A stretch of DNA of 61,326 nucleotides from Psammoneis japonica (Eukaryota): positions 62,001 to 123,326 of the forward strand of contig QPGO01000209.1 of NCBI GenBank assembly GCA_008632985.1, written 5' to 3'. The notes beneath the pieces are model-generated. The model made no database searches. It had not been told where the DNA came from and worked only from the letters and a program-made list of their open reading frames with translations. Made by a program: the position numbers and the translations under genes. The first letter of the stretch is position 1. Every line of letters starts with the position of its first letter. Below, piece after piece: positions 1-60,572 of this stretch.

Positions 1-665
1 CATGGAATTATCTCGGCGACCTTTTCTGGCAGCTTCTCATGACGCTGCGTTCGGCGTTTTGTCTTCTGGCATCGATCGCACTTGACGCACGTAGAATGCA
101 CCGTAGACCTCATGCCAGGCCAGCAGAAGTGCTGGGCAACAGATGTTTCCGTGCGTGTCTCACCTGGGTGACACAGTGTCTCGTGGCACCATTCAGCTAG
201 CGGAACCTGCAATGACTGTGGCACTGCGATTTTGTCCTTATGACAGATTAACTGTCGTGATGACCCTCCCCCACGATGCGCGCGAATGGAGCAGTCGGAC
301 AAGTCCTCAGCTCGTGAGAGCAGGCGCTTGTCCTTTTGTTGTTCTTTTTGAATGCGCTTGAAGCCAACAGGCAGAGATGCGTCGTCTTGCGTGTCCGCGT
401 TAAAAGCTTCATGCAAAGGACGACTCGATGGAGTGTCTTTTGCATCCGGATTGGCCTCGGAAGGCAAGCTGGGTGCCAGCCGAAGGCGACTAAGAGCGTC
501 AGCGACCAGGTTGTGGGTGCCCTCAACATGGCGTAATTCGGGACCGCATTCTTCGCATGTCAACCGCCAGCGCATAACGCGCTCAGTGTTGAATGCTTTG
601 TGCGCAAGATTTTTATGATCAGCATGTACAATCACACGATGACCGAGGAGAGTCGTTCGAAATTC

Positions 666-1061
666 GACGTGTTCCAGCTCTGGGTGGGACCTCGCACTGC
701 TGAACTGTGACACAATTGTTTTTTGTCATCCGTCGTATGTTTCGCACGCACATTTCTACGTGTTCTGTTATAAAAAATTGTTCCACACTGCCTGTTTTGC
801 GAAGCCAAAGGCTTTCTGTTGTCTGCACTTGTGTCAACAAAAATGCGCTGGGTGTGTTCTTTAATGTCTAAAGAGCACACCCGGGCACACTGCAAAGAAT
901 GTACTTCAAGTGTGGAGGAGGAGACACGTTCGCAAAATTGCCTCTTTTTCTGTTGGCGATCATTCACATGTCCATTGCTTGGTGATTTTACTGTGGAGCT
1001 CGCACGCAGAATTCTGCGGGCCCAATGTCACAAAAAGTCCCACCTGGGACTGGAACCCGTC
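666..1061. mobile_element. 396-bp MITE, GAC...GTC termini, 4-bp TSD ATTC, TpA-mutated copy
   Basis: Imperfect ~25-bp TIRs gacgtgttccagctctgggtgggac / gtcccacctgggactggaacccgtc; attc at 662-665 and 1062-1065; removing it restores the RNase H frame KE-FRT. Confidence 0.92.
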
Positions 1062-1102
1062 ATTCTTTCAATGTCTCCACAATGGCGAGCAATTCTCTCT
1101 CC

Positions 1103-1498
1103 GACGTGTTCCAGCTCTGGGTGGGACCTCGCACTGCTGAACTGTGACACAATTGTTTTTTTTCATCCGTCGCATGTTTTGCGCGCACATTTCTGACTGT
1201 TCCATCATGAAAAATTGTTCCACACTGCCTGTTTTGCGAAGCCAAAGGCTTTCTGTCATCTGCACTTGTGTCAACAAAAATGCGCTGGGCATGTTCTTTA
1301 ATGTCTGAAGAATGTGCCCGGGCACACTGCAAAGAATGTGCTTCAAGTGTGGAGGAGGAGATGCGTTCGCAAAATTGCCTCTTTTTCTGTTGGCGATCAT
1401 TCACACATCCATTGCTTGACAATTTTACTGCGGAGCTCGCACGCAGAAATCTGCGGGCCTGATGTCACAAAAAGTCCCACCCAGGACTGGAACCCGTC
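1103..1498. mobile_element. Second 396-bp MITE of the same family, 4-bp TSD CTCC
   Basis: Same TIRs; ctcc at 1099-1102 and 1499-1502; removing it restores TTE-RELLAIV. Confidence 0.92.
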
Positions 1499-1688
1499 CT
1501 CCGTTGTTGCACAATTTAATTGCGCACTGTTGAGCTTTCTGCCACAAAAGGCGACAGGTTTGTTGTCTTGGGATGTGACTGCTCCCAATTGACATTTAGA
1601 GGCATCGGTGTGCACCTCAAAGGATTCATTAAAATCAGGATGTGATGATAAAACATCATCTGACATTGCCCGTTTAACGGTTTTGAAT

Positions 1689-1792
1689 GCCTCGTCTTCA
1701 ACGGACGTCCACTCCCACTTGACAGTCTCGCTTGCGAGTCGCCTCGTCTTCAACGGACGTCCACTCCCACTTGACAGTCTCGCTTGCGAGTC
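1689..1792. repeat. Perfect 52-bp tandem duplication in Gypsy pol
   Basis: gcctcgtcttcaacggacgtccactcccacttgacagtctcgcttgcgagtc occurs at 1689-1740 and 1741-1792, shifting the frame. Confidence 0.95.
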
Positions 1793-2974
1793 GTGTCAGC
1801 GGAGCCAAGACTTCAGAACGTCCAATCCACGGGTCACGGCAGCAGTTGACCATGCCAACAAATGACCGCAGGTCGCGTTCATTGGTTGGGGTCGCGATTT
1901 GCTTAATGGCGTCAACTTTATCAGGCATTGGTCGTGTTCCGTCTCTGTTGACCAGGCAACCCAAGCACTCCAATTGGGTTTGACAGAAGTGAGATTTGGC
2001 TGTGTTAACTTTTAGTCCTGCTTTCTGGACCCTCAACAAAACTTCTTCAAGTTTGTTGAGATGATCTTCATGGGTGCCTTTCGTCAAGACGAGAAGGTCA
2101 TCTAAGTGCGTTCAAACAAACGACAGATCTTCAAACAAGCCTGACATGCGTTCTTGGAAAATGTCTGGCGAATTGCATGACCCCATGGGCAATGCCTGCA
2201 TCTCACACTTGCCCCACGGGAAGATGAGCATGCAGAGCTTCTTGCTGTCAGCATCCAATCGGATGTGACAACAGCCCGTGTTTAAATCCAGCGATGCAGC
2301 CCACACAAAGCCTTTGAGCTTGAGCAGCACATCTTGGACATGAGGAATCGGATGAGGCAATCGCTTGATCCATTTGTTCAGCTCTCTGAAATCATTGACA
2401 AAGCGCACCATTGAGTCTTTCTTTGGCACGACAAATGATGGAGCTGCCCATTGGGATCGGCCAACGCATTTGAGAACACCGATGCGCGCCAGGCATTCTA
2501 CTTCTTTACGCAGCGCAGCTTCGCACACACGAGGTGCTTTACACGGACGAGCGTGGTGTGGTTCTGCACCCTCCTTGAGTTGGACATGGCAGGGTTCTCC
2601 CTTCCATTCTCCCAATGTCCCATCAAATGAGGACTCATGGCGTTTCAACAGTGCCAAAAGGTCGTTTTGTTGAACTGCAGAAAGTCCCATTGCTCCTCGC
2701 ATCATGTCTTCGAGGCAGGCCGGCGCGTGCTTGGCGTCTGAAATGCGTGAAATCCAGTTGGTTTCCGAAGACAAGGCTTCTGGATCTTGAAGATAGAAGG
2801 GGGTTTCTGCCGCAGCATCTGGGTGCCTCATTGGCGCTTCTCCATTGACCAATGGCCACTCTGTCATCTGTTTGGAGAAGACAATGTCAATGCCTTGTGT
2901 CTCCAGAATGTCACGTCCAACAATCATGTCGCACTTGCCCAACTTTCCGTTGTGTGCGTGGACGGCATGTTTAA

Positions 2975-3508
2975 GGTAATCGCAGAACGAAGGGGCAAAG
3001 GCACGACAATTTGATTTTTCAGGATTTTCTGCTGCACGAGAAACGCGCAGCGCGCTGCGCGCCTCGTCGCCAACAATCGGCGACGTGACGGTGGTGCGTT
3101 GTCGCAACGACAGAGATGACAGCGACGTGTCCCAGCGTCTTTTGTCGTTGTGGACATTTAGTTTGTCATGTTTAAGAATGCATTCAGTCATGAAAGTCCC
3201 CGCGAGCAACCTCCATTAGAGCGCAAAACGTCATGCCAATGAGGAGCTCTGTTTTTCGACCGTCGTTTTATGCATTCGATTGTCAAACGATTGTGAGTTC
3301 GTCCGGGGGACTTTCTTTGCATGCATGTGTTCTGCATGGTGCAATTGATCAATGTGTTAAGTGCCCATCGCAAATTGTCCTCCATCAGCATCTGAAAATT
3401 GTCATCGTCATCGTCGGTGTCGACGACAATTTGTCGCGCAAATCGCAAAAAATGCACGGCAGTCGTCTGTCTGACATTGCGCTGCTGTGCGCTCGTTGTG
3501 CGCATGCC
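2975..3508. mobile_element. 534-bp non-autonomous TIR element, GG...CC termini, TTAA target (Kolobok-like)
   Basis: Flanks ttaa (2971-2974) and tcaa (3509-3512); removing it restores the protease-region frame ELSKTAEL-KHAVH; inverted homologue at 30884-31417. Confidence 0.85.
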
Positions 3509-3870
3509 TCAAGTTCTGCAGTTTTGGACAATTCTGGCAACCGAATTTTAATGGCACAGTCGTTGGACGTGCTGAACGAGCCTGCCACCGCAGTCCAGTT
3601 TGTCTCAGCCGTTGAACGGCTTTGCAGATGCTTGCAGTGTCAACTGTCGAGCAGAGTGCTGCTGGCGCCACCATCTGGTGGTGCCTCAATGGTTTGAGTC
3701 TTGCCCTTGCCATGTTTGGTGTTCACAGCCACAAACAAGATTGGAGCAAGATGAGTCTTTTTAACTTGTTTGCGGGATTGGCCTGCAACACGTGTACGAT
3801 GGTAATTCAGTTGTTCATTCACACATTCATCTGGTGCATTAAAACTGCCTGCATTGTGTCGGACCCCTTC

Positions 3871-5016
3871 TCAGGTGTCCGAATCTTTGGAATCACTCAA
3901 GTTGAGGTCGCGGAAGTGATTGAGCTCCTCCTTGCGTGCCTTGCGCTTTTTCTGAGCGTTGGCAAAGAACTCCTTGACCTTCGATCCGATGAGAGCATCA
4001 ATGTCTTCCTCATTCCAAGGTTTTGCATCAGGCTTGCTGCCTCCGTCATTGGAATGTCCAGTCTTGACACATTTCACGTGGTGCTTGAGCTGACAGCAAT
4101 CCTCCGCATGATGTCCACAGTCAGTCCCGTGTGGCATGCACGACTTCTGGGTGTTCCGTTGGGTCGTGATCAACGACTCAGGATTGTCCGTTCTACGTCC
4201 CCGCTTGCGTGGAACCTGAGCATGTTGGTCCAGGTTACCTTTGGCAAGCTCGACCTGCTCGATGCGCTCGCAGAACTGTACAAATTCGGCGATGGCATGC
4301 GCCAACAGGTCAAAATTCTGTAACGTCATGAACTTCTGCCATGCGTTTGGCACACCGCACTCGAACATGTCGCACAGTTCGTCATTGGGTGATGGTGCCA
4401 GTGCTTCTCCATCCTCCGTCACGGGTGGAAACTGAGAGACATGGCCGTTAATTTCAACAGCCCTCGCGACGCAGTCACGAGTGGAAACCTCTGCGGGCTT
4501 GCGCATGAAGCACCTCAGATGACGCTTCTGCAACAGCACCGCCCCATGTGGGAAGATGCTTTCCTTTAGCTTCGCGACGCACACTGCGTGCGTGGCATTG
4601 GTTTCAGATGCCTGCATGTCAGCGGCATTGTTGAATGACGTCAGAGCATCGCCCTGCAGCAGGTCACGCACAAGGGCAAATTTCGCTGGCCCGGTCGTCA
4701 TGTTTTGTCCTTCGTGCACGCGATCCACGTTGCGCAGAAAGATCAGGAGTGTCTCGCATGTAGCCGCAGAAAGGTGCGGGATGCCCATCTCATGCGTTGG
4801 ACCATCCGGATCAGTGGGGTTGTTGTGCAGTTTGAACGTCTGGTGCTCGCCCTGCTGTGGCTCTTTCTTCTCCGGCCGTGCGAATGGAATCGGTGGCTTA
4901 ATCCGCTTCTTCATGGTCGTTTTGAGATTTGTCGGTCCTGCCAACATTTCGTAGTTTCGTTTCTGCAGATTTCGTTGCCTCGCACAATGTGCGGGAGTGA
5001 CATTGCTGTGCCCCAT
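3871..5016 (-). pseudogene. Gypsy gag, open but Tyr-depleted
   Basis: 381-aa ORF with PIPF..TFKL..NP, LL.GDAL..F, QKR.LR.FMRKP and a CCHC-like remnant (CMPHG..CGHHAEDC); lies directly upstream of the protease. Confidence 0.85.
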
Positions 5017-5910
5017 GTGTGCACCAGGCGCTGAAAAAGAAGATGTGTTGCGACTTTGTCGTTGTGAAAATTGCGAGCTAGTTTAGAGTAGAGAAAGTGG
5101 GATCATGCGAATGGGGAATCTTGCCAAATCCCCATTCGTTCGCATTTGGATCGCATCAAATCGATCGTGCGTTCGCATTGTGGATCGTGTGAATCAAGCC
5201 ATCACGCACCATGCACGAGTGATGTCATCGTGTGGAATCACGCTGCCATCGTGGGCCAGACGACGGGCCAGTGTGCTTCACACGGATGCTCTCTTGGCAT
5301 CCTTCTGGAATTGCCCAAGACCTAGAGCCACGCCCTCCTGTGGTTGTGCTTCCCAGGTGCGCGTTAACAATGCTGCTTTGCCGCGTACAAGAGGCTCATG
5401 CATGGTCTCGCCGTGTTGTCCAGCAGCAAGGCATGCTGCAATCTCATCCCTTTCATTGAAGACAAACACTTGACCATCATTTTTTGTTTCAAAAACGTGG
5501 CTTCTGGTGTGTGTGACATTCATGGAGCTTTCCTGGGCTCTTCCAAATGACAGCAGTTCTTTGCTGTCTCCAGTGGCGGCAACGGCACAGCTGGAGTGCC
5601 TGGAACTTGAGAGTTGTTTGGAAGATGCTCTCCAGTCTTCAAATCATGCTCTGCATCAGCATGGCATCCTGGAGATTTGAGGAACTCTTGTTTGTTGTTG
5701 CCATGTTGGACATTTTTCTCCAAGGGATGATGGCGAATTGTTGCATGACTGAAAAGAGTGGAGGGACAGACAGACCAACTGATTTTTTGCCGACAACAAG
5801 GAAAATGCATCATGACCGAAACAAGGCACTTTGGCACCATCTACAATGAAATGAACTCCAAAAATGCAGTGTGATTGACACAAAAGAATGAAACAAAAAC
5901 ATGTTTCTAA

Positions 5911-5975
5911 GACCCGTCGCAGTCGTGATGAAGGGGTGCAATTCGGGGTGCAATTTTGGGGTGCAAAAACGCGCG
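5911..5975. mobile_element. Single terminus of the PIF/Harbinger-like family seen at 30017, TpA-mutated
   Basis: taa|gacccgtcgcagtcgtg..ggggtgcaattcggggtgcaattttggggtgcaaaaacgcg matches 30017-30080 with gtgtaa>gtgcaa three times; the other end was not found. Confidence 0.75.
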
Positions 5976-7544
5976 ACACCCCTCAAAAAAAGTTGCACCA
6001 CATCTGATTTTCCACTCCATCTCAACTTGCCAATGGAAAGAGACTTGAGACATCAACAGAGCACTGCTCCATTTTGTGGCTTTTGGCATGTGCACATTGC
6101 TGCTTTGGAAAAGGATCAGTGCAAGGATCTCTTGCTTGCAAATTGAGGGGCACACAAGGTGACCTTTGGCACAACCTCAACTGGGGTGCAGATGTTGGCT
6201 GGGGGCCAGCAATGTTTTTGAGGGGTGCAATGGTGGGCATGGTGGGAGCCTGAGATTGGTCATGCCACAGGCAAAGGAGGACATTGAGACCTTGGAACAC
6301 ATGATGGCTCTTGCTGTGGCTGTCTCCCATGCTGGGCAGTGCGCTCATTGTTGACGCACCAAAAGTTGCTCAGCCAGCCAGCACACACACAAAAATGTCA
6401 AAACAACCAAGTGTGATGTGAGGCCCCTGGAGCACTTGATCTGTGCTGGAGAAGAAGGGGGGGGGCCATGTGGTGGAGTTTCCAGGATGTCCTTGCTTGT
6501 CAGAGCAAGCCACCGCTTTTTTGCTCTCTCTCGGGCCATGGGCAGCAATGTCAGCCTGTGTTTGAGTGAACAAGCAACGTTGCTTGCCAAAAATCCTCCA
6601 GCTTCTGTGGGCATGCCCCACACATGTGAGGCCAGATGTGGTGCTCAGTTGAATGACAAGCTGCCCCATCTTGCCTTTTGTGAGCACAGCACACAAACCA
6701 CCAGCTTGCCGGTTGGAGAGAGCCCAGCTTGCGCGGCACTCGCATCTCATTTTTCAGTGTTTTGTTCACAAACCCTGGGGGCATTGCACAACTCAGCCTT
6801 GAGCACCGTCAGACAACAGCCTGCACTTCTTTGGAGTGTTTGGCAGTTTTTTGCTTTTGAAAATCATCCAAACTTTTGGCGCTTCGAGCCACAATGACAG
6901 TGCCCCAAGATTCCCTCGCCGGCGCATTTCAGCTTTTCTGACTCCAGAGAAAGGGCTGAGATGTGGATTTTGTTGGCTGAGAAAGCAGGTGGCTTCCAGC
7001 CAGAGTTGAGATTTGTGCTGCAGCCACGACTGTGGATCAAGCCTGACGCTGCGCTCAGCCATGAGTTTTTTCCTGGTTGAGAGCGTGGATGACAGAAACA
7101 GCGCTGACAAGCGGCCCCATCGAAGCCCAGAAAGCAGCCGTGTGATGATCTCAGACATCCCAGCACATGACCCACATCAAAAACCACTTTCAACGAAGAA
7201 GCCCACAAACAAAATGGGGGCATCGAGGCGCGCTTGTCTGTTGGGGGAAGGGGAGGGCGCGTTTGCCCCCCAAAGCTGCCACAGCATTTGAACAAGGTTG
7301 TTTGTCAGTGCCTGCACCTGATCACCAATCACAGGCAAAAACAAGAACACCATGCACTGTGATCCAGGCATGACGATGATGACGGTCATCGACGTTTCTC
7401 AAAAAGGCGGCTTGCCGTCTTCAAACTTTTCATGTGCGCAAGATTTTTGGCGCACAAGGAGCACAAAACAAGCGAGAGTTCTTTGAAGATGGACCACCTC
7501 CACCACAGACTTGTGGCTTGCTGTTTTCACATGCCAAAATCCTT

Positions 7545-10203
7545 GTTGCCTGTTGACACGGACCGAGGGATCATGCACCGGGAAACGCTGAGGCAACAAC
7601 ATTCTGCATCATTTGACGGCGGCGCCGCAACAAAAATGACGAAGCATAAGTCATACGAAACATTTATCGAGAAATGGTTAAATGGTTCGAGACACTTTCT
7701 GGATGTAGGACATGAGATGTTTGTGTGAAAACGCATGGGGAGAAAACAAAACATTACTCTGGCGATGCGGATAGAGCCGCAAAAAACTTTACAACCGGAA
7801 GAGCAACGATACCGATTTCAAAAGAATGCGTTTCAAAGCCTCCGTTTTGACCTCTCTTGCCACGGTTGTGTGGGCACAAGGTAAGCTGATGACACTTTGC
7901 TCTGCGTGTCTGTCTCTTCCGAGATGGAGAGACGTTCTGGTTCATTTTGCGGCTGACTTCTGATCATGCGAAGCCCTTTATCAATCATCTTGCTAATGTC
8001 AAATCACTGCCGCCTCATCATCAGGCACAACCAAGGACAAGGATCATGTCTATCCACGCTTCACGGTAAGTCCAAAAAATGAGCAAGGGTTGTTGTGTGG
8101 CCAGCTTGACATCACAGCTCACGCTTTTGATCTTCTGCCGAAGCCCCTTGCAGGTGAAGCTTTGCAGAATGAGAAGCCGTCTACAAGCGATGAGAAGCCC
8201 ACTGAGCGAAAGCTCAGCAGGCCTTCTCGCCCAGTAGAGTTCCCTTATGGCAACCCTTGTGTCAATCTTCGGCGAGATTCTGATCCTCACGATGGCTACA
8301 ACAGTGACGGATGGAAGCTCGTCAACTTTTGTAGTGCGGGTGCCACTGGTCGCTATCCAGCGCAGAGACCAGACTGTCACCACAATGATGACGATTCTGC
8401 CTACCACACGCTCAAGTTTCCCTTTACATTTTATGGAAGGGACTTTAGATATGTCTACATCAACAACAATGGCAATCTGTCATTTGACCGTCATAACAGC
8501 AAACCGAGCTTTACAGTGAATGACACACCCATTATTGCTCCGTTATGGTCTGATGTGTACACGGGAGAAGTCCCTTATTATGGGTGTTCGGGCTGTGGTC
8601 ATGTGTGGATGAAAGAAATGTCAGACAACATGTTAGCAGTAACGTGGGAAAACGTCGCCGATGGCTACCATCCAAACGATGATCGATTGAACTCCTTCCA
8701 GGTGTTGATGTCAGACGGTTCGGACCCTTCGATGGGCTTGGGCAACAACATGTGAGTCTCCAAAATGGTGCGTGTCTCAACTGTTTATATTGTCAATGGT
8801 TTTTGCTGACATGAAACTTTTGATTTCTTTTTCAACATAGCTGCTTCTGCTATGCAGACATGAATTGGTCGATAGGAGGTAAAACTGTGGGAGTTTACAA
8901 GGGAGACGGCAGAACGTCCTTTCAGGTTACAACCCCTCCGTTTCCAACCGTGTTCTTAAGTTCTCTCGAAGGCAAAGGCTTCTGTTTCGATGCTGCTGCG
9001 GAAGAGAACATCCCTCCCATTCCCTTTAACTTTCCATCAGATGATAGGATTGACCTCAAGGGATGTGCCTCGATTGATACAGAGTTTAGCTTTCTCAGTC
9101 CTGAGGTTGGTCAGTGGACCACGGTTGAGGTTTATGATGCTCCTACTGATGTAATGACTGTTACAGTACAGAATGGGAACACTGCTACTGTTCGTCTCCA
9201 AATAACTCCCACCGTGAATGCAGACTGGACGTTGAACTTTTTTGTCAGAGACAGCAAGGGAGCTGTTACAGAAAAGGCTCTCAAGGTTACTGCGTCTGGC
9301 TGCCATGATCCACATGGACCAATAATGCGCTGCTCGGACCGACATTTGCGAGCTTCTAACAATCGGTGCCATGCTTGGACCACGATTGATAATGGGTCCA
9401 GATCCCGCAACGGTGCGGCAGCTCGATTGACACTATGGCCGCTTCCGCCTTACCCATTGGGTGTCACCAAGGTGACTCTATGGGCCGCCGATCAATTTAG
9501 AGATGGTAAGACAAACTCTTGCACAAGGACTGTGACGGTCGATCCACCTCGATATGGTCACTGTCCAATAACTCCAGTCATGTACTGCAAGGACGTGAAT
9601 AGAAAAGCCCGTTTCTACCCACTGTGCGACTATTGGGCGACCGTTGATGATGGTTCTCATGACCCCAGAGGTGGTAATTTGACTCTTGTCCAAAACCCTC
9701 CGCCTCCCTACGGCATTGGATACACAAGAGTGACACTCAAGGGAACGGATAGAAACGGTGTATCCACGACATGCACGGCATCTGTGAACGTTCGAACCTC
9801 TGGTGGCCGTTGCAACATATAGCCGTGGTACGATGTGCGATTAGAGGAAGAACTAGGATTCTGCATATATATTTTTCGGTCCTGAACTGGAATGGCATCT
9901 GCCAAGACAAAGTTTCAATTCGATAGCCAGTGTCGGACCGATACATGTTTGGATATATACGTCGGAAGGGCAGTGAGGTTGATGACGTTGCATGTGGATA
10001 CACATTTTAATCGATTTATTGTGCATCACTTGGACGTAATCGGGGTGTTTTTGCACACCTTACGCGGTGAACCAAGGATGATGACACTCTATAACATCAT
10101 GGCGAGGTTGCAAGCTTGCTTGATCCTTAGTTTTAGAATAATTTATTAGGCAAACCTCGTGAGCAATTCACCAAGTAGCATGGTTCAGCGGTCGTCCATG
10201 CAG
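7545..10203. repeat. Segmental duplication unit containing the NIDO gene; inverted copies at ~27425-29950 and ~51150-53860
   Basis: Upstream sequence, introns and ~380 bp of 3' flank align by eye between copies; copies B and C also share the adjacent SDR pseudogene. Confidence 0.9.
7826..9822 (+). CDS. Secreted nidogen-like (NIDO) domain protein with two C-terminal HYR/Ig-like repeats, paralog A; join(7826..7880,8025..8065,8105..8751,8841..9822), 574 aa
   Basis: Signal peptide MRFKASVLTSLATVVWAQ; three GT-AG introns at the same positions in all three paralogs with frame preserved; NIDO motifs NDDDS..L.FPFTFYG..YINNNGNLSF, IAPLWSDV, VTW..V, NSFQV; repeats ending PPYP.G.T.VTL...D..G...SCT..VTV. 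Confidence 0.88.
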
Positions 10204-10599
10204 CGTTGTGTGAGAACTGCCTGACTGCCCAGGAGGGCACCTGCTGACAAGGCCAGCAACGGACCATTGTCTGCCACTGGAGTGCTGCACGGGACCGTCA
10301 GCCCAAAAAGGGCACGGGGTCCATCAAAGGACCAGCCACAGCTGCATCAGCAAAGCAGTCCAAAGGCTTGGGGGAGCTGGAGGGTTGACGAGAGTCATGC
10401 ACAAATGACTTGGCCAATGGGAAAAATGAAGCACAGGGATGAGGGACATGACCTGGGGCCAATGCAGGCACTGAATCCAACAATGCAGGTGGTGGGACTG
10501 TGTCCCCGGTGGCGGCAATGCTTGGACCAGATGCAGCCGCAAGGGCTGGTTCTGACCAGGTGAGGTGGCAGCGGCAGTGGCTGAGGCTGGCGGGTTGCA

Positions 10600-14088: not shown

Positions 14089-14135
14089 TCAACACCACAT
14101 GCGCACGGCACCACACAGTGTGCACCGTGCCTCTA

Positions 14136-38150: not shown

Positions 38151-38159
38151 CCCGATCAG

Positions 38160-49294: not shown

Positions 49295-50104
49295 TGTTCT
49301 TGGAGAACAAAAACAGAGGCTTGCAACAGCTGGCTCACTTGAGTTGTGGCAGACGCACTGGAGTGGGGTGCATTTTGCCGGTGTTGGTGGTGACAGTGGC
49401 AAAAATGCATGCCGAGCTTAAAAAGGAAAGGCAACAGAGGCAGGACGAGATGATTGGATGCTTGCTCACAGCCACCTGTTGGTGTGCAGGTGTTGGGTTG
49501 ATTTTTGAATCAAATTGTTGAGTGAGGACTTGATTGATTTTTGAGTGGGAGTTGCTTGGCATGGTGGCAACAGCAACTGGAGAGTTGGCCACAAAGAGAC
49601 AATGCAGGTGTCCTTCCAAACAACAAGGTGTGTGAAAAAGAGCCCACTCAGGCAAAGAAAACAATGCCGCAGAAGGAAGAAAGACAACCGTCTCACGCAC
49701 ATCATCCGAAAGACTCAACCGCATCCATCACATCACTTCAGCGTGCTTTGGCACACGCCAGAAAAAGAAAACTGAAGCAGCAGCGGAGAACAATGGTCGT
49801 TGTGGAGTGGGACATGAGCTCAACCAATTGGGTGGCGGATCATGCCAAGGTGATGCAGGACACAGTGAAGGTGAGAGAGCATGTCAAGGAAACATTGTTC
49901 CTCAGTGTCACATTCATGTTCGACAACACAAGGAAATGGAGGAAACAGGCATGCTCCACAGGGATTTTGAACAGAATTGCGACCCAAAGATGATGGACGG
50001 GATGCTGCAGGATTTGCCCGAGCCAGAGCAAAAAACATGCCTGCACCACCTGTGGCTTACGATGAAACAAAAAAAGATGCATCAGGAGTGGCATGAAAAA
50101 AAAA

Positions 50105-50721
50105 AGAGTGGGAACAAGCTGTTTGGAATTTTCAACAACCGGCACTGGTTTTGGCAGTGGCTTTGAGGAAACAATCGACACCAATTGTGTCGTCCCACGT
50201 CGAGTCAATGATGCCTTTTCCAAACATTTGTTGCATCCCAGTGGTCGCACCATGAATGTGGCGCGTGCTTCGGGTCCAAACTTTTTGAGCCGCTGTACGG
50301 ACGAGGACCTGAAAAAGAAAAATTCACCACGCCCACCCAGGTTGTAAAGGGAGGTTGTTTCTGAGCTTGATGAATTGGCAAACTCGCATTTCTCGAAATC
50401 AGATTATGACAATGATGCCCGCGGAGTGAGCAAGGCGTTGCTAAATGCGCACACGGCACACACACGGCCATGCACGCCAAGGCCGAGCCGGAACTTTTCA
50501 TCAATTCATGCTCTCCGGGGAACATGCTCACAGATTTAACAGCGGGCATGGGTGCTGCGAATCCACCCTCCAAAGGTGCGGTTTGTTCAGTGTGGCTTTT
50601 GCTTTTAGAAGACCATTTGGGAAACCCGACGGGTCACTTCTGTGGCAGTGACTGTGTCCGTAGTCCGCCACACTTCAACCGAGGTCCCGGAGATGAGGCT
50701 TGTGAAGGACCGGATGCCCAG
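50105..50721 (+). pseudogene. SDR pseudogene copy 2, 5'-truncated
   Basis: Aligns with ~26384-26992; catalytic YxxxK reads RGVSK. Confidence 0.85.
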
Positions 50722-51536
50722 AGCGAGAGCTGGCTGCATGGGAGCGACACATTTGCTTTAGAATGTTTTGTGCCAATGCCAGAACGTCGACTCCAAAGAT
50801 GGCCCTCTTCATCATCCCGACGCGTTCAGAAGAAGTGTGGGCAATGGGGCTTTCGCGACACCTGCTCCATGCTGCGTGCAACTGCGTTGCGTGCTCGCTG
50901 CAACGCTGAACAATGTTCTCTTTTTTTTCCCAAAAGAATGCCATGTCTTTTCGTGGGGCATTACTCTTAGCGAGTTGCATAAAGTCCAATTGTCTCAACA
51001 GCTCAACATCAGAATACGACGTGTGCGGTTGTCACTTTCTAAGGAATTCTTAAACTCTAGTAGCACGAGGAACTACATTGCTGGTCAAAAGCCGAATTGC
51101 AAACTCAAAAGGATCATTCTACGAGCGAGCGAAAACACTTGAATTGATCAGATGCGTGGACGACCGCTGAACCACACTACTTGGTGAATACCTCACGAGG
51201 TTTGTCTAATAAATTATTCTGAAACTGAGGATCAAGCTAGCTTGCACCTCGCCATGACGGTATAGAGTGTCATCATCCTCGGTTCACCGCGTATGGGTGT
51301 GCAAAAACACCCCGATTACGTCCAAATGATGCATACAAATCGAGTAAAATGTGTATCCACATGCAACGTCATCAACCTCACTGCCCTTCCGACGTACCGG
51401 TATATATCCAAACATGTATCTGTCCGACACTGGCTATCGAATTGAAACTTGCTCTTGATAGATGCCATTCCAGGTCAGGACCGAATAATATATGCAGAAT
51501 CTTAGTTCCTTCCTCTAGTCGTATATCGTACCACGG

Positions 51537-53593
51537 TTATATATTGCAACGGCCACCAGAGGTTCGAACGTTCACAGATGCCGTGCATGTTGCGGATACA
51601 CCGTTTCTATCCGTTCCCCTGAGCGTCACTCTTGTGTATCCAATGCCGTAGGGAGGAGGAGGGTTTTGGACAAGAGTCAAATTACCACCTCTGGGGTCAT
51701 GAGAACCATCATCAACCGTCGCCCAATAGTCGCACAGTGGGTAGAAACGGGCTTTTCTATTCACGTCCTTGCAGTACATGACTGGAGTTACTGGACAGTG
51801 GCCATATCGAGGTGGATCGACCGTCACAGTCCTTGTGCAAGAGTTTGTTTTACCATCTTTAAATTGATCGGCGGCCCATAGAGTCACCTTGGTGACACCC
51901 ACTGGGTAAGGCGGAAGCGGCCATAGCGTCAAGCGTGCTGCCGCACCGTTGCGGGATCTGGACCCATTATCAATCGTAGTCCAAGCATGGCACCGATTGT
52001 TAGAAGCTCGCAACTGTCGGTCCGAGCAGCGCATTATTGGTCCATATGGATCATGACAGCCAGACGCAGTAACCTTGAGAGCCTTTTCGGTAACAGCTCC
52101 CTTGCTGTCTCTGACAAAAAAGTTCAATGTCCAGTCTGCATTCACGGTGGGAGTTATTTGGAGACGAACAGTAGCAGTGTTTCCATTCTGTACTGTAACA
52201 GTCATTATATCAGTAGGAGCATCATAAACCTCAACCGTGGTCCACTGACCAACCTCAGGACTGAGAAAGCTAAACTCTGTATCTATCGAGGCACATCCCT
52301 TGAGGTCAATCCTATCATCTGATGGAAAGTTGAAGGGAATGGGAGGGATGTTCGTTTGAGCAGCAGCATCGAAACAGAAGCCTTTGCCATCGAGATAGTT
52401 TACGTCTGGAGGACCAGTGACATATTGTCCTTCCTGGTTGAATCGACCAAGCTGAAAGGATGTTCTACCATCTCCCTTGTTCACTCCCACTGTAGCAGCA
52501 ACTCCTCTAAGACCTTTGTCACCCGACGACGCATCTCCTGTCGTCCACTCCATGTCTGCGTAACAGAAGCAGCTATGTGGAAAAAGAAATCGAAAGCTTC
52601 ATGTGAGCAAAAAACACAGGCAAATTATTTAAAAAAAAAAAACAACTGAGACACGTTCAATTTCGAAGACTCACATGTTGTTGCCCAAGCCCATTGCAGG
52701 GTCTGAACCATCCGAGATCAGTACCTGGAAAGAATTCAAGCGATCATCATTTTTGTTGTAGTATCCAACTTCTTCCCACGTTACTGCTAATTTGTTGTCC
52801 GATATCTCCTTCATCCACACATGACCAAGATATTTTTCCGAAACAGCCCGGCCCGTATCCGTGTCCGCCCAGAACGGAGCAATCATGGGGTAACCGTTCA
52901 CTGGAAAGCCTGTGGAAGTGTATTCGCTATAATGACGGTCAATTGACAGATTGCCATTGTTGTTGATGTAGACTCGTCTAATGTCCCTTCCATAAAATGT
53001 AAAGGGAAACTCGAGCTTGTAGGCGGCAGAATCGTCATCATTGTGGTGACAGTCTGGTGCCTGAGCTGGACGATTGCCAGTGTCAGTCGTACTACAAAAG
53101 TTGACGAGCTTCCATCCGTCGCTGTTGTAGTCATCGTGAGGATCAGAATCTCGCCGAAGATTGACACAAGGGTTGCCATGAGGAAACTCTACTGGACGAG
53201 AAGGCCTCGTGAGCTTTCGTTCAGTGGGCTTCTCATCGCTTGTAGGCGGCTTCTCATTCTGCAAAGCTTCACCTGTAAGGGGCTTTGGCAGCGGATCAAA
53301 ATCGTGAGCTGTTATGTCGAGCTAGCCACACGACAACCCTTTTGCTCATTTGGACTTACCGTGAAGCGTAGATGCATATGATCCTTGTCCTTGGCTGTGC
53401 CTAATGATGATGCGGCAGTGATTCGACATTAGCAAGACAATTGACAGAGGGCTTCGCATGATCAGAACTCAGCCACAAAATGAACTAGATCGTATCTCGG
53501 AAGAGACAGACACGCAGAGCAAATTGACATCGGCTTACCTTGTGCCCACACAACCGTGGCAAGATAGGTCAAAATGGAGGCTTTGAAACGCAT
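51537..53593 (-). CDS. NIDO/HYR-like secreted protein, paralog C; complement(join(51537..52572,52675..53321,53360..53400,53539..53593)), 592 aa
   Basis: Same exon structure, frame preserved; most canonical NIDO motifs (IAPFWADTDT, WTTGDASSG..ATVGVNKGDG). Confidence 0.9.
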
Positions 53594-55999
53594 TCTTTTG
53601 AAATCGGTATTGTTGCTCTTCCTGTTGTCAAAGTTTTTTGTGGCTATCGTCGTCAATCAATGCTTTGTTTCCTCTTGCGTTTTCCCGCCCGATACAAGCA
53701 TCTCATGTCATACATTCCAGAAAGTGTCTCGAACCATTTAAGCATTTCTCGATAAATGTTTCTTATGACTTATGTTTTGATTATTTTATTGCGGCGCCGC
53801 CGTCAATAAATGTTGTTGCGTCTCAGAGTTTCCCGGCACATGACAGTGTCAACAAAAGCATTTGTCGCAGCCGCGATTGGCTGCGAGATGACACCAGCAG
53901 TGCTGTACCGGTAGTGTCGGAGTCAGTGAGGACGCGAACGCTAATTATTTGTCAGCCACGCCCAACAGAATTGCGAACTGCAATGATTAAGAGACGACTG
54001 TGACTTAACATTTCAATTTTATTTAACGCCTGTGTCTTGACAGTTCCATTCTATTAACAGATTTCTTCATAAGTGTTTCGTCTGCACTTAAAGCACAGCC
54101 ACCGTTGCCTTCCCCAAGATGTCATCGTTCACTCCTCGGCAAATTCTGTTTGTTTCGACCAGTCACAATTCACAATCACCTTGTGCTCACGATGAAGTCT
54201 CGGTTGTCAAGAATCCTGAGGCTGCTGCCCCCGAGAACTGGAACTCATCAAGTCACCAAGTTGCCACTTTTGTGGTTCTCTGTCATCTGAAACAACATTG
54301 GACCACACCGAGCCACCCAGAGCGCACCCCTGCTCTCCTGTTTCCCTTTTGCAGCAGAAGCTTTGAGAAATGACACTCGAGCGAGCACCATTGCTGTTGC
54401 CCGACTTGACCTCTGGATTCAATGTGCCCAAAACCTTTTGACATTTGTCCATCAAATGAGAAACCATTGTGCAATGCACTGTTTTGGCCGCCAGCAAAAG
54501 CGCCGACAAACGCCAACAAAGCCGCTCCAAATGAGGGCCCCGCAGACTGAAACAAAGGAAAATCAACCAAAAACAACACCTTGTCACACCAGCCAAACCA
54601 ACAACATGGAAAGAAAAGCAGCAAAGAAATGAAGACATCAACAAAGTGCCCACTCAAGATGATGCAGAGGGTGCCACTCTTGGAAAAAGACACCCCACCC
54701 ACTGGGCTTGCTTCGCTGGGCACACTGGCCACATTTGTTTCCTTGTGCACCACATTGTTGGTGCTGACCAAAGCAAATTCATGCAATTTTTTTTGCTTTC
54801 TGCAACTTCTCTTTTGTTTGGCTGTCAACACTTGGAGACATGTGCTGCAAATGTTCCTCTGGTGTGCCTCCAGGAAACAGCAACAGACTGCCCCACTTGG
54901 CTTGAACTTGGCAGTGGTTCCTTCTGTTTGTGTTTTTGGCACTGAGGGGCCACAAACAAGCTGGTGCCACCCTGCACTTTCTTCTTTGAACATGAAAATT
55001 GAGTTTGATGGAGAATCGCCGGAAATTTTTAGCTCTTCTCTTTGGGCACCCAGGCAATTCTCATGTGTGTTGTTGCCAACAGCCAGAAATTCTGCATTGT
55101 CTGTCTCTTCTCTTTGCGCATCTGCAGGAGACAGTGGTTGTTGGAGGGAATGTTCCAGCAAAATGGGAGGCACTGGAGGTGATGCCATGGCGAAGGCAGC
55201 TTGCGCGGGAATTTTGAGCAGAAACGTCACACTTTCAAAGGCCACTGCAGCACAACCAGAGGTCACTGGAACACAAACAATGTGTGAAAATGCATGTTTC
55301 TGAGTGCAGAGAATTTGCCCACATGGTCATTTGGGGCTTGTTGTTTAGTGTGGGTGTGCAAAACACATGGGTGTCACACCCGGGCGGTTGCAACACAGAT
55401 TCAAAAACAGGTGTTGCACCCCAATTTGTTTGTGGGGTGTGGCACGTGGTGGGTCACACCCACATCATTTGTGCAGGGGTGAAGCCTGGTGTTCATCTGT
55501 GTGCTGCATGCAAGAAAACCCAACCCGGCAACCGCCCATTGTGCGGAGATTTGTGGGTTGACACTTGCACCTCTGTGGCAGTCTCCAGCTGGTGGCAAAA
55601 GCCTGCACCTCCACTGCACAAAAAAAAAAAACACACCACACCATCATCAGAGCACGCATTGCAGTGGTTTCCACTTTCCTTTGTAAATTATTTAATGTGC
55701 ATTGTCAACATTGTCAACAATGAGAATTTACAAAATGCTGGCAAAAGTGCTCAACAAAATGCAGCTGTTTTGTGCATTTCATCTGATGTCTCATTGACTT
55801 TTCTTGCACAAGCTTCAATCAAATGCGCGCAATGTTTAATTTCACAGGGATTGAAATCTGTGTTTTGTGATGCGTGGTTTGGTTTCCTTTTGATTGCAAT
55901 CAATTTGAACTTGGTTTTCACTTTGTCCTCCTCAACCACGCTTCACGCACGCACGTGACCCACCTTCATTTTTCTTCATGTTTCCCAGATTTGTGCAGC

Positions 56000-56223
56000 C
56001 CGTTGGTCTGCAGCATTTTCAGCATTTTTTTACATGTGCAATTTTCTGCACACTTCACAACAGTGCATCCTCCCCCCAAAACTTGAAAAACGAGAGCATG
56101 TGCTGTTGTGACCGTTGGTCTACAGCATTTTCAGCATGTTTTTTACATGTGCAATTTTCTGCACACTTCACAACAGTGCATCCTCCCCCCAAAACTTGAA
56201 AAACAAGAGCATGTGCTGTTGTG
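56000..56223. repeat. 112-bp tandem duplication
   Basis: ccgttggtct(g/a)cagcattttcagcat...gagcatgtgctgttgtga occurs twice with few differences. Confidence 0.92.
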
Positions 56224-56299
56224 ATTCACGTGGATCCTGCGTGTTGTCACAAATCTGCAAATCAACAACTGGCCATGGCAGTGAAAGACTTCACCCCAT

Positions 56300-57050
56300 T
56301 GGCTGATGACAGTGGCTCAACACATGGTGAAACCTGCTGTCCTTCTGGTTGGACAAGATGGATTTTGATTCGGGCGCAGCTTGAGTTTCATGACAGCGAG
56401 TGTGCTGTCACAAATCTGCTGCATCCAGAACACTGAGCTGCTGGCATGTTGTTTTGTGCAAGCACATCACAAACTCACTTTTCTGCAGCGTTGGTGCAAT
56501 CGTGCATGTCAGAGTTTTGCATCCAGAATCATCACAAGTTGCCACAAATGACACTCTTCAAACAAGGCATGTGCAGAAAGAGGTTCATTGGTTTTTAATG
56601 TGTTTGCTGACAATGCATCTCTGTCTTCTCCAATTTCTACATCAATGTCCAGAAATGCTGCAGGCAGTGCTTGTTCCCACAGCTCTCAGAATCACACGCA
56701 TGAAAAGTGCTTTGCTGTGTGTGACACTCTTCAAAAAAGGCATGCACAAAAAGAGCTTCATTTGTTTTTTGTGTGTTCACTTACATTGCATCCGTCTTCT
56801 CCAATTTCTGCTTCCAGATCCAGAAAGACTGCAGAGGTGGAGAGTGGGGAGGCAACCCATTGGAGGTTGCCTGAGTTGTCAGGCTCATTTTTAAAGGCTT
56901 CCCAAGTCTCTCTGCTGTTTCTGGTCCATGCTCTAAACATTTCATTGATGAACCGTCTGCAGCACAGGAGGTGCAAGGTGAACTTGGTCATTGCCGCATG
57001 ACGTGTTACACCATGCACCGGCATCCATGTTGCTCTGGAATCAGCGGTGC
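56300..57050 (-). mobile_element. Penelope-like element RT C-terminal remnant, partly duplicated
   Basis: RRFINEMFRAW..W.AF..GNLQW..SAVFLDLE and KPMNLFLHMP resemble the PLE pattern RRFIDD..W / FLDL / KPMNLYLYIP; ~56560-56670 repeats ~56735-56840. Confidence 0.6.
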
Positions 57051-57084
57051 CGGATGCACCAACACACCGGCAAGTGTGTGTTGC

Positions 57085-57490
57085 AGTTCATGACAGTTCA
57101 TTGGCCTTGTGCTCTCACAATGTGCTCCACACTTTTTGGCAATGAATGAGGTTGACATCAGAGCAACAGCACTTCTGCCGCAAACTCGCCAGCTCCAGAA
57201 TCAGCGGCATTAGATGCACTGGCAAGTCCATGTTGCCATTCCTGTGGGTTGTGTTGGCTCATCTGTGTTGTGCTCTCACAACTTGTTCTGCTCTTTTTGG
57301 CAATGAATGAGGTGGAATGGAGCAACAGCAATTCAAACAATGGAACAGCAGCTCCTGCCACAAACTTGCCTGCTCCAGAATCAGTTGCACTGGATTCACT
57401 GGTGAGTCCATGTTGTTGTTCCTGTTGGCAGTGTCAGTTCATCCACATTGCACTCTCACAACATGTTCTGCACTTTTTTGGCAATGAACA
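57085..57490. repeat. Degenerate tandem repeat, ~160-180-bp unit, ~2.3 copies
   Basis: ctctcacaa...tttttggcaatgaa recurs at ~57112, ~57273 and ~57453; gctccagaatcag and agtccatgttg recur twice. Confidence 0.75.
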
Positions 57491-59699
57491 ATGTGGCTGC
57501 AAGCAGTGGCACTTCAAGAAAGTGAGCTGCAACTGCTGCTGCAAACTCTGGGGTGTTGTCTCTGTCAGCGTCATTTGGCTTAAATGCAAACAACAAAATG
57601 GAATGTTCGTGGCACAGTGCAAATGATTTTAATTTACAAGTTTTGTGGGGATGGAGGGTGGGCACTCTCATGGGGAAAACGTGCCCCTGCTTCACAGTGC
57701 ACAGTGAAACAGGGGGTCCCACAGCACAAAAATGTTTGTCTGTCATGGTTGACATGTGATTGCCAGCTGCACAACTGTCAAGGTTTGAAACAATGGAATT
57801 TTGCACCACAATGGATTAAAAACATTGCTGTGAGAAAGGTGGTCTGGATCACCACAATGCACACTCTGATGATGATGTGTGAACTTTAGAGGCCTGCCAC
57901 TCTGCAACTGCAGTGACTTGACAAGCAATGCCATGTGTCATTGCCAAGCACTGTGCGTCATGTCTAACTGTGTTTTGTCTGTTCAACATGAGTGGTCATG
58001 GAACGAAAAAATGTCTCTCTTCATCATCATCAACATCATCAGCCAATCCCAAGCATCCTTGACCTGGTGTGCCTGTGATGATGGAACCAGAGGATTTGAA
58101 GTGCTCCAAATGCAATGCATGGGGGTGCCAAAGATGCAAGGAATGCATTTCACAATTGGTTGTTTGAGAAAACACAGGATTTGTGTTGAATGCTTTGTGT
58201 GAGCATGCTGGTCTAGGAAAGCAGCACAACAAACTGACATGCTCTCAAAGTGTGGCACCCTTTGCACCAAGTGTCAGAGCCATTCACTCAAATGCACTCT
58301 AAAAGACAGAAAAGTGTGGATGCACAGAAAGACATCTGTCCATGAAATGGCCCAGCCCAGCAAGAAGAAAGACTTTGTTTGAGCATTTGAAACGGAGCTC
58401 AAGAAGCAAACAAATCTTGTTGGTCTTTCCTTGGTGGGGGGGGGGGGAAGACAGTGGGAAGCTAGACCCACAGACTGTTGTTGTTCCAAAAGATCATCCT
58501 TCCACAATGGGAGACAGCAATCAAATTTTTTTTTCAAGCCAGTGAAATGTCTTCATTTGGCTGTGGTCTGCAATGACTCAAACAAGACTCTGTGATGCAA
58601 CCCGATGGCCTGCTGATCATTCACTTGCAGAACTTGCAAAATCAGTCAACGGCTTTCTGTGTGACTTTGTGTTCTGTCTGTCTTGTGGGGAAATCAGAAA
58701 GAAAATGGAGGAAAGGAAGGGCAAAACATTTGACAGCAGCAAATGGAGCCGTTTGTTTGAAATGGTTTTTGTTGGTCAACATCGCGTGGAGTGTGTGATG
58801 CTTGAATGCCATCAGTGGCATTGTGCAGCCCCTGTTTGGCTCACAGTCAGCTGTTCAAGTTGCACCTGAAAACATCCTTCTCCATTTTCTGGATTTGGTC
58901 TGGTGATGACGAGGCACACCAAAAGGTGGAGGAACCAGAAATTCTTGGATAAAAAAAATCTTGAAGGGTTTGACTTCTCCAAAACCTTGATGCACGACTG
59001 CCTGAGCAACCAACAAGACAACTGTGGACACAAAGTTTGAGGTGGAAAAGAACAAGGATTTTGTGCGAGAAGGACGTGTCACCATTTGTTGTTGATTTGT
59101 TGTTGATTCGCGTGTTTGGGTAAACACAGCGCACTGCACGTCATTGTTGTGCAGTTTTTGTAACATGGTTCTTGATTCAGTGATCCGAGGCAAGGTCCAG
59201 ACATTCGCAGCTTACAAATGATGGACCGCAACGCGACGAAACGAAGAAGACGTCCAAGTGTCCAGTCTCAAATCAGACAACAGCCAAGAAAGACTTGTGC
59301 CAAGCAAGATTTTTCAGTCTTTGCAGATCAAACCACATCCAGAGATTAAAATGTCACACTGCACTCCTTGCGCCTTTGCTTCCCTCATCCATGCTGTTCG
59401 ATGTGAAAAGAGATCGTTGGCATGTTGACAGAGGAGCAAGTCCAACCTGTGGAATTTGGCCGTCGCCTTGGCTGCATCGTCCGGCACGGGTTTGTGGGTT
59501 CTCGGCTTGCATGTGAAACCCAGCGACGTGCAGTTGCAGCAGCATGTAAAGCAAAGCAGTTCTGTGCTCTCGGACATGCGCTCAAATGTGGCAAAATGAG
59601 GCATCGCTTCAAGGTGTTGAATGGCTGTCTTGCAGTCTGGCGCATCGACCCCGAGCTTGTTCTATTGCATGGGCTGACTGCCACAACAATGATCATCTC

Positions 59700-60080
59700 C
59701 ACTGTGTTTTGAAGCCTCCACACACACAATGGTTGTTGGGAACAGCCCAAGCTTTGAAACAACAGGTGGACATGTTGATGGCAACACAAGTGCCAGGGAA
59801 AGCAACACCAATGCTGTGATTGCTGCTGAAAAGTGTGCTGGCTGGGGATGGTTCTCTGTTGACCAATGCACTGTGTGCCACATGTGAAGGCTCACAATGA
59901 ACCAGACAAGCTGGGCAAAGCAATGGCTGAGATGAAGAAAGTTTCAGATCTTTGTCTTGAAGCTGGCAAGTCTGCAGTGGGCGGGAATCCCACAAAGCTC
60001 AGAAACTCCCAAACACACCAGCAGCATGTTAAGACTTTGGTTGAAAATGCCGGACACCAAGGCACTCCTCTTGCCAGCCA
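59700..60080 (+). mobile_element. Copia gag remnant related to the 21654-22490 gag
   Basis: KKVSDL.LEAGKSAVGGNPTKL..QQHVKTL versus KKVSDF..LETGKSVI..GDPNKV..KQHIKSL. Confidence 0.5.
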
Positions 60081-60572
60081 CACTTGACAAATCAGCTCTC
60101 TTCACAACTGAGTTTGGCATCATCAAACACCATCACAGATTGCAAATGAGCCTTGAAAGTGGGAATGACATTGCCTTTCTGTCTCCCTTGGGGGTCAACA
60201 CATCTCCTTCTCCTTCTCTGCAACAGAGGCTTGCTGGACTGGGATCACTGGAACAACATCCCTGCATGACCACTTGGCTCCTCTTCACACCTTGAGGGCC
60301 CTTTGCATCATCTAAACCTCAATCTTTCTGTTGCTGATTGCCTTGGCCTGGCAAAGTTGCCATCAATGCAACAGAAATTCACCACTCTTGGTCCCGATTT
60401 CAAGTTGTGCATTGCAGTTTTGCCATTCACCCTGATTCATTCCCATGCACGGTAACACATTAAGTGAGTTTAATCGTCCTCGCAGGACATCCAGAAGAAC
60501 AAAGAAAGTATGTAGGTCTGGCGCTATAGAGTTACACTCGTACGTGAAAAGTTAAAGACTCAATGAAACGGT

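Follow-up and report, generated by a model that had tools for sequence, protein, structure and literature searches.

To our knowledge, besides fungal repeat-induced point mutation (RIP) and the decay of methylated CpG, very few processes are known that mark mobile DNA by mutating the resident genome in a directed way, and the only one of them that runs from A:T to G:C stands in a single preprint of 2026. The closest described system comes from mutation-accumulation lines of Bigelowiella natans, in which live TpA>TpG/CpA hypermutation of viral insertions was reported (Mettrop et al., bioRxiv, 10.64898/2026.01.13.699255). In the text of that preprint, a single giant-virus (NCLDV) insertion and a single virophage insertion took up 231 of the 302 point mutations that were new in the nuclear genome, and 230 of these 231 were A>G or T>C, all 230 at TpA. 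TpA-depleted coding sequences were enriched in reverse transcriptase and DDE domains, 124 depleted clusters were counted in 95 Mb, and Rho TpA was 0.45 in the giant-virus region, while the virophage region was not depleted; adenine deamination was proposed, with an ADAT2 homologue named as candidate (Mettrop et al.). No other account of a TpA>TpG/CpA process was found in the full-text literature outside subscription journals. Here we describe a 61,326-bp stretch of the genome of Psammoneis japonica (GenBank assembly GCA_008632985.1, contig QPGO01000209.1, positions 62,001 to 123,326, forward strand; hereafter the window, with coordinates counted from its first base), which carries what appears, by analogy, to be the footprint of the same kind of process. 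Its TA-poor blocks are very probably transposons and adjacent dead DNA that were rewritten, after they had settled, by a TpA-specific T:A>C:G mutator.

Over the whole window, the observed/expected ratio (O/E) of TA was 0.236 (938 TA in 61,326 bases), with 0.584 for CG, 1.571 for TG and 1.572 for CA. Segmentation on a sliding TA measure defined six TA-poor blocks (1–8097, 10329–15948, 19686–27056, 30969–48164, 49366–50851, and 54147–60333), which total 45,957 bp, or 75% of the window, and have O/E values of 0.10 for TA, 0.48 for CG, 1.68 for TG and 1.70 for CA. The six remaining stretches, between and after the blocks, amount to 15,369 bp with values of 0.61, 0.91, 1.24, and 1.21, respectively. 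Single blocks ranged from 0.06 to 0.16 for TA and the islands between them from 0.51 to 0.67; block edges were sharp to within ∼150 bp, and the depletion was restricted to silent blocks. The TA-poor part contained 284 TA where 2,908 were expected from base composition, and 200 shuffles of this part gave a mean of 2,907 (SD 38.7) and a minimum of 2,751; the depletion is therefore real and far beyond chance. An earlier interpretation of this DNA made from its letters alone (the sequence-only reading) had described the older blocks as almost free of TA and rich in TG and CA, and these counts (284 versus 2,907 ± 38.7) bear it out. The longest TA-free gaps measured 1,739 bp (5908–7647), 1,427 bp (22911–24338), and 1,387 bp (46807–48194).

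Comparison of related copies revealed the ancestral state and the direction of change. The Copia retrotransposon of the fourth block (33473–40110, minus strand, Pfam RVT_2) is bounded by two long terminal repeats (LTRs) that were located by self-comparison on the minus strand (33478–33662 and 39924–40108) and that differ at 21 bases in 185 bp. These comprised five TG/CA pairs (10 bases), in which one copy reads TG and the other CA, three TA-versus-TG/CA differences, five CpG transitions, three other transitions, and no transversion; no TA was common to both LTRs. A TG/CA pair implies a TA ancestor that was hit on opposite strands in the two copies, since two simultaneous transitions would otherwise be needed. 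Likewise, two tandem, TA-poor copies of an element with terminal inverted repeats (TIRs), resembling miniature inverted-repeat transposable elements (MITEs), were found by self-comparison in the first block (665–1061 and 1102–1498, plus strand) and showed 10 TG/CA pairs, six TA-versus-TG/CA sites, two other transitions, and four transversions in 397 bp. These two pairs differ mainly at TpA, with 24 of the 26 detectable ancestral TA sites altered and only five other non-CpG transitions, and transversions numbered 0 and 4 versus 21 and 31 transition bases.

A second pair of TIR copies, inverted relative to each other (48179–48567 and 48905–49294), is apparently recent. They are 96% alike and TA-rich, have perfect inverted termini, and share 24 TA in 389 bp. 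At the sites where the young copies have TA, the old tandem copies read TG 14 times, CA eight times, and TA six times; 16 further young TA sites lay opposite TT (8), GA (3), CC (2), GG (2), or AA (1) in the non-homologous interior. No TA of an old copy stood opposite TG or CA of a young one in this alignment, and for one CTAG of the young copies the two old copies have CTGG and CCAG, respectively. The changes arose after integration, because LTRs are identical when they integrate and these have diverged by TG/CA pairs. The process is TA to TG/CA on both strands of resident DNA, and it has affected retroelements as well as a DNA transposon. TpA is palindromic, and a hit on the top strand would give TpG and a hit on the bottom strand CpA, the two about equally often and near to completion.

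The TIR family was observed to be very abundant while still having normal TA, with a summed contig depth of 65,000–92,000 for 48179–49294 in a public sequencing run (run X1), compared with ∼33 for single-copy contigs.

The consequences for proteins were assessed in the Copia polyprotein, of which residues 313–1512 were aligned with 23 near-full-length homologues picked from 150 listed (33–49% identity). Tyrosine made up 0.25% of the Copia residues, compared with a mean of 3.81% (range 2.96–4.85) in the homologues. Among the 19 columns in which at least 70% of the 23 homologues have Tyr, the Copia element reads Tyr in three, Cys in seven, His in seven, Phe in one, and Met in one; conversion of conserved Tyr to His or Cys, as the sequence-only reading had proposed, was thus found in 14 of 19. 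The equal numbers of Cys and His indicate that sense and antisense strands were hit equally. Conserved Ile was kept in 7 of 14 columns (otherwise Val in three, Met in two, Thr in two) and conserved Thr in 8 of 13 (Ala in four, Gly in one), Ser had become Gly in 2 of 14, while Gly, Ala, Asp, Pro, Arg, Glu, Lys, Trp, and others were kept at 79–100%. Of the replacements listed in the same reading, Ile to Val, Met, or Thr was therefore recovered at 7 of 14 conserved positions, Thr>Ala at 4 of 13, and Ser>Gly at 2 of 14, and its Leu>Pro/Ser fared poorly, at 0 of 27 conserved Leu in Copia and 3 of 20 in a second element. Judged from the codons, the Tyr, Ile, and Thr changes are those to be expected from TA within codons (TAY, ATA) and across their borders (T/AYN>T/GYN, the slash marking the border). 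Tyr contents were 0.23–0.78% in the transposon frames examined and 3.6–6.2% in the host genes of the window, and only 3 of 1,280 residues in the first block were Tyr.

These comparisons also bear on whether the elements were always poor in TA, either because their ancestral consensus had little TA and Tyr or because TA was selected against. The window's genes themselves show a mild under-representation of TA (O/E 0.61), as such a bias would have it. Nevertheless, the 23 Copia homologues contain 2.96–4.85% Tyr and their conserved Tyr columns read Cys or His in the window, the young TIR copies are TA-rich, and the TG/CA pairs require a TA ancestor. A TA-poor, Tyr-free consensus is refuted for the elements that could be tested, and as a general account it has the faintest chance of all those considered here.

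TpA changes inactivate proteins by missense (Tyr>Cys/His, Ile>Val/Met/Thr, Thr>Ala), with long frames left open, unlike RIP. The Copia pol frame (33621–38159) is indeed still open over 1,512 codons. What keeps the frames open is the disappearance of TAA and TAG (2.95 and 1.38 per kb in the TA-poor part, 10.97 and 8.33 per kb in the islands), together with the fact that TA>TG/CA creates no new stop. A long open frame in TA-poor DNA is accordingly no sign that a gene is live or an element active, and such blocks would mislead gene finders and screens based on ORFs. Homology searches fail on the elements, since their codons for Tyr, Ile, and Thr have been changed systematically. Long overlapping open frames, many of 150–400 codons, were observed on both strands of the TA-poor blocks, for example at 20890–22625, 46098–48157, and 54283–55958.

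A deaminase acting on RNA could in principle leave a similar record. ADAR prefers a U on the 5′ side of the edited A and hyperedits double-stranded RNA derived from repeats, and ADAR-like A-to-I editing of retroelement transcripts before reverse transcription would let elements arrive already edited; some TG and CA are shared by the two LTRs and could be such an inheritance. However, the LTRs, identical at integration, now stand five TG/CA pairs apart and share no TA, a TIR DNA element and a host-gene fragment were mutated too, sense and antisense hits are equal (7 Cys and 7 His), and the order of preference on the 3′ side of the edited base, T > C > G >> A (see below), is the opposite of the 3′ G of ADAR. 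Editing of transcripts is therefore very hard to sustain. The window resembles the products of APOBEC3 and ADAR in that these, too, deaminate mobile or foreign nucleic acid enzymatically with a preferred neighbouring base, but their substrates are single-stranded cDNA or RNA, they work before integration or while it takes place, and one strand bears their mark, whereas here both strands of resident DNA were changed after integration, DNA transposons included.

Genes within the window served as controls. Three paralogs with NIDO and HYR domains (7571–10202, 27427–29917, and 51153–53843), secreted-looking and 83–88% alike, mark three gene islands, namely 8098–10328 (paralog A, plus strand, TA O/E 0.61), 27057–30968 (paralog B, minus strand, 0.67), and 50852–54146 (paralog C, minus strand, 0.61). 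In a three-way alignment with changes polarised by majority, A>G changes per lineage-site were 0.041 after T (15/363), 0.0195 after A, 0.0385 after C, and 0.0198 after G, and there was no TpA excess among these gene paralogs. Up to the points where homology ends, TA counts were alike in the three paralogs, and no spread of hypermutation into the genes was seen along them. Gene islands with normal TA and Tyr, as claimed in the sequence-only reading, were thus confirmed (TA O/E 0.61, Tyr 3.6–6.2%). Its central proposal of a DNA-level A:T>G:C change at TpA on both strands of silent domains was supported, given that the two LTRs of one element diverged, that Cys and His replacements were seven each, and that paralogs remained normal.

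Two of the NIDO/HYR paralogs sit in a 3.6-kb segmental duplication that includes a carbonyl-reductase-like fragment (weak match to human CBR1, E 0.0019). The two copies of this fragment (26377–27056 and 50099–50851) show eight TG/CA pairs and only five shared TA in 678 bp. Inside the same duplication, therefore, the fragment was hypermutated and the neighbouring NIDO/HYR gene was untouched. Since duplicated genes were spared while the fragment beside them was mutated, duplication is not the trigger; host-derived dead DNA was mutated too, and it is the block that decides, not the family. Fungal RIP is similar in that dense transitions on both strands at one dinucleotide of genomic DNA inactivate transposons and leave a strong skew. 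RIP, however, turns C:G into T:A, for the most part at CpA, with TpA and stop codons among its products, whereas here TpA is destroyed, CpA is gained, and no new stops appear; RIP also requires duplicated sequence, and the three gene paralogs, 85–88% alike by blastn, keep normal TA. In place of homology, recruitment would depend on the chromatin state, or the transcription state, of DNA that is silent and foreign, a trigger that we infer.

The deficit of TA was balanced by its expected products. Relative to the islands, the TA-poor part had 36.4 fewer TA and 21.3 fewer CG per kb, and 29.7 more CA and 28.8 more TG, so that a TA plus CG deficit of 57.7 per kb faced a TG plus CA excess of 58.5. 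TpG and CpA also result from the decay of methylated CpG, which the older blocks do show (CG O/E 0.21–0.31), but this decay leaves TpA alone, and the loss of TA (36.4 per kb) exceeded that of CG (21.3). The Copia and Gypsy blocks have lost ∼85% of their TA (O/E 0.16–0.17) at a near-normal CG O/E of 0.8–1.0, and because these blocks keep CG, erasure of TA is faster than CpG decay and independent of it. A trigger in CG methylation, which the sequence-only reading had offered, is at odds with this result; a slower CpG>TpG/CpA decay comes on top of it in the older blocks.

The data also argue against another candidate of that reading, a Pol-eta-like polymerase whose patch repair of silent or methylated DNA would be error-prone in the way known from the WA motifs of antibody hypermutation. 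Pol eta favours A>G at an A that follows T or A, which would account for changes at TpA. Yet AA was not depleted (75.5 per kb in the TA-poor part versus 75.4 in the islands), nor were AC and AG, A:T transversions were rare between young copies (0 and 4 transversions in the two pairs), and TA loss preceded CG loss, with CG at 0.8–1.0 when TA had fallen to 0.16–0.17. Such repair is a very improbable source of the changes.

In the CG-poor blocks (10329–15948, 19686–25800, 40111–48164, and 54147–60333), TCG/NCGA was about twice as depleted as other CpG contexts, and CpG survival was lowest for TCGA (0.11) and highest for CCGG (0.46). The depletion of TCG could reflect a preference of methylation or a side activity of a mutator that requires a 5′ T.

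How often TA survived depended on the bases on either side of it. Survival, taken as the share of each flanking context left in the TA-poor part relative to the islands, and approximate because it is normalised to coding-rich gene islands under coding constraint, fell from TTAA (0.61) through TTAG (0.36), CTAA (0.27), GTAA (0.19), TTAC (0.17), CTAG (0.12), CTAC and GTAG (0.11 each), TTAT (0.08), ATAA (0.07), GTAC (0.07), ATAG (0.07), CTAT (0.06), ATAC (0.03), and GTAT (0.01) to ATAT (0.00). Reverse-complement contexts agreed. An additive fit over the two strands gave values of 0.26, 0.81, 1.36, and 2.44 for A, G, C, and T, respectively, as the base 3′ of the adenine (R2 0.93). The chance of a hit thus varies with the base that follows the adenine on its 3′ side, in the order T > C > G >> A, and is summed over the two strands; in trinucleotides the order of preference is TAT > TAC > TAG >> TAA. 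In the Copia element, 67 TA are left in 6,638 bp, mostly of the TAA type and distributed evenly, and they showed no sign of patchy action of the mutator (variance/mean 0.77 in 300-bp bins). Such a quantitative signature can be compared with candidate enzymes and with the new mutations of the B. natans preprint, the main text of which contains none of the words "trinucleotide," "context," and "flanking" (10.64898/2026.01.13.699255).

As to the agent, an enzyme that deaminates adenine in DNA at 5′-TA-3′, most likely a protein of the deaminase fold, is the leading candidate, put forward tentatively from the mutation pattern and at somewhat less than even chances. Adenine would be deaminated to hypoxanthine, which pairs as G. 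The natural tRNA target of the ADAT2/TadA family, A34, follows U33, and amid the deaminases with described contexts ADAR favours a 3′ G and bacterial TadA the sequence UACG. A deaminase-fold enzyme that causes A:T>G:C in DNA has been described in amphioxus, where BjADAT2 is reported to work in the contexts GAA for adenine and TCG for cytosine, rather than at TA (PMC10354150).

The base that is attacked could also be the thymine. In that case a thymine dioxygenase of the TET/JBP type would oxidise T at TpA in silent DNA to 5-hydroxymethyluracil or 5-formyluracil, and mispairing with G or an error in repair would give T>C. 5-Formyluracil promotes A:T>G:C transitions, and some protists carry bases derived from hydroxymethyluracil in silent DNA. 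An agent directed at T fits the TpA palindrome equally well, and the flank rule then becomes a 5′ preference of ATA > GTA > CTA >> TTA. Nothing specific to thymine oxidation was found in the window, however; the only 2OG-Fe(II) oxygenase gene (60576–61325, at the window edge) matches Pfam models of the prolyl-hydroxylase type, and the near absence of transversions in young copies (0 and 4) is unlike error-prone repair initiated by a glycosylase. We regard thymine oxidation as unlikely, while giving it more weight than any other alternative to deamination.

The 2OG-Fe(II) oxygenase gene itself was observed to have relatives that reach 54% identity, and a more distant one (40%) is labelled Tpa1-like; at 60576–61325 nothing links the gene to the mutational process.

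Reliability of the letters was examined with run X1, from which contigs were built from 31-letter words at a depth of ∼33. Over TA-poor stretches of 546–3,433 bases these contigs were identical to the window, as in the 3,433 bases of 41027–44459. The run supports the sequence and is not fully independent of it, as it may be the assembly's own sample, and its platform is not on record. Modified bases give systematic miscalls on some long-read platforms, and it could be argued that a modified base at TpA was misread by the sequencer or polisher in a genome that is truly TA there, the more so as the platform of the assembly, like that of run X1, is not on record. Against this, the contig matches without differences need accurate reads, 2-kb windows across the gene islands keep TA O/E values of 0.42–0.69, and at homologous sites one copy has TG where another has CA, which is unlike a deterministic miscall and disfavours a systematic one. 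An artefact of this kind is scarcely credible.

Differences of these kinds were also seen in other genomic copies. Contigs of run X1 placed on 30001–50000 at 80% likeness or more differed from the window at 1,675 transition and 561 transversion places, and the best-supported 40 of 2,245 differences included 10 bases in TG/CA pairs, seven TA-versus-TG/CA differences, and seven CpG transitions. One contig joins 33472 to 40111 without the 6,638-bp Copia element, with nine other letters at the junction. The contig represents an empty site, which is either an allele or a further copy of the older repeat into which the Copia element inserted.

Several points weigh against a TpA-specific mutator working through adenine deamination in silent transposons. 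The spectrum, the TA to TG/CA polarity, the timing after integration, the restriction to silent blocks, the independence from duplication and from CpG decay, and the flank rule are established here as features of an end state read from sequence, with no enzyme, modified base, or ongoing mutation observed. Because the footprint at TpA is palindromic, it cannot tell whether A or the T paired with it was struck. The flank rule, with 3′ T best and 3′ A worst, differs from the contexts of ADAR and TadA, and the ADAT2 that is reported to edit DNA prefers GAA (PMC10354150), so that no known deaminase fits out of the box. The survival indices are approximate and run X1 is not fully independent, as noted above, and the most mutated blocks have no family match, "transposon" being not shown for all of them.

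Set beside B. natans, the window shares the defining features of the preprint's description. Changes are nearly only A:T>G:C transitions, fall only at TpA, and yield TpG and CpA; they are limited to particular silent or foreign regions with normal neighbours, leaving TpA-poor windows rich in CpA and TpG; and repeats are not needed, the NCLDV region reported there being single copy (Mettrop et al.). The two cases differ in that the preprint gives a live measurement on two mildly depleted viral insertions, whereas here only the end state is seen, in LTR retrotransposons, a TIR element, and a host-gene fragment, with O/E values of 0.06–0.16 over 75% of the window. The long, intron-poor frames of the window and the density of its depleted DNA also seem out of keeping with the B. 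natans genome and with the 124 clusters counted there. The label "undescribed," which the sequence-only reading attached to the system, must be dropped, as the same spectrum is reported in the preprint (10.64898/2026.01.13.699255). The window adds near saturation, timing from LTRs, independence from duplication and from CpG, the flank rule, open frames, and new types of target.

The TpA-specific mutation can thus come near saturation on ordinary retrotransposons and DNA transposons. A further step, which the evidence makes possible but somewhat doubtful, would be a dedicated, chromatin-directed enzyme system unlike ADAR, TadA, and ADAT2, with the order TAT > TAC > TAG >> TAA, saturating a large share of the repeats in an organism other than B. 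natans. If so, erasure of TpA would be a widespread genome defence of protists that kills transposons by missense and leaves frames open, and the requirement for a 5′ T might be shared with the more rapid TCG loss in this window. Base-editing work, too, would take an interest in a natural enzyme able to edit TA in double-stranded genomic DNA.

The composition of the blocks varied. The first (1–8097; TA O/E 0.16, CG 0.79) contains a Ty3/Gypsy element (1 to ∼5100, minus strand) with Pfam matches to the integrase zinc domain, RNase H, and RVT_1; its integrase (3–725), RNase H (1400–1795), reverse transcriptase (RT; 1701–3215), and gag-like (3874–5082) parts, all on the minus strand, are broken up by the two tandem TIR copies, and the rest is unclassified DNA with the 1,739-bp gap. 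The second block (10329–15948; TA 0.06, CG 0.30) is unclassified and repeat-derived, with no Pfam match, and the sixth (54147–60333; TA 0.08, CG 0.31) is likewise unclassified and repeat-derived. The third (19686–27056; TA 0.07, CG 0.21) has the carbonyl-reductase-like fragment at its right end, and the fifth (49366–50851; TA 0.11) holds the second copy. The fourth (30969–48164; TA 0.10) combines an old Gypsy RT remnant recognised by self-comparison (30883–31330), the Copia element, in which a gag-like frame occupies 38160–39559, an RT-like element (41139 to ∼44900), and other unclassified repeats.

The RT-like element belongs to a family without a Pfam model. Its frame at 41139–42299 (plus strand) contains 0.78% Tyr, compared with 4.15% in nine relatives. 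The family (41139–44900) was observed to have conserved blocks in nine metagenome relatives at 30–41% identity; no precomputed Pfam domain was present on the nine, and the frame in the window gave only a chance-level match (E 0.1).

A Pfam scan of 149 frames of at least 90 residues, chosen from 254, gave matches for the Gypsy parts and the 2OG oxygenase and for nothing else, which left the most mutated blocks without a match; a separate scan covered the frames of the Copia element and of the host genes and identified the NIDO/HYR and LVIVD-repeat genes of the islands. At E values up to 5, 18 frames returned only noise. The family labels of the sequence-only reading accordingly stand for Gypsy, Copia, and the MITE-like TIR family, one RT-like family was verified besides, and LINE, PLE, and Plavaka are unverified. 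A match of the gag-like frame to Toxin_35 (E 0.0016, below the family cut-off) was taken as chance arising from the excess of Cys.

The remaining gene island (15949–19685, plus strand; TA O/E 0.57) carries an LVIVD-repeat gene at 17541–19346 with 6.2% Tyr. This gene is one long open frame whose relatives are at most 35% identical, the named ones being bacterial or archaeal, and on these sequence relationships it may have been acquired by horizontal transfer.

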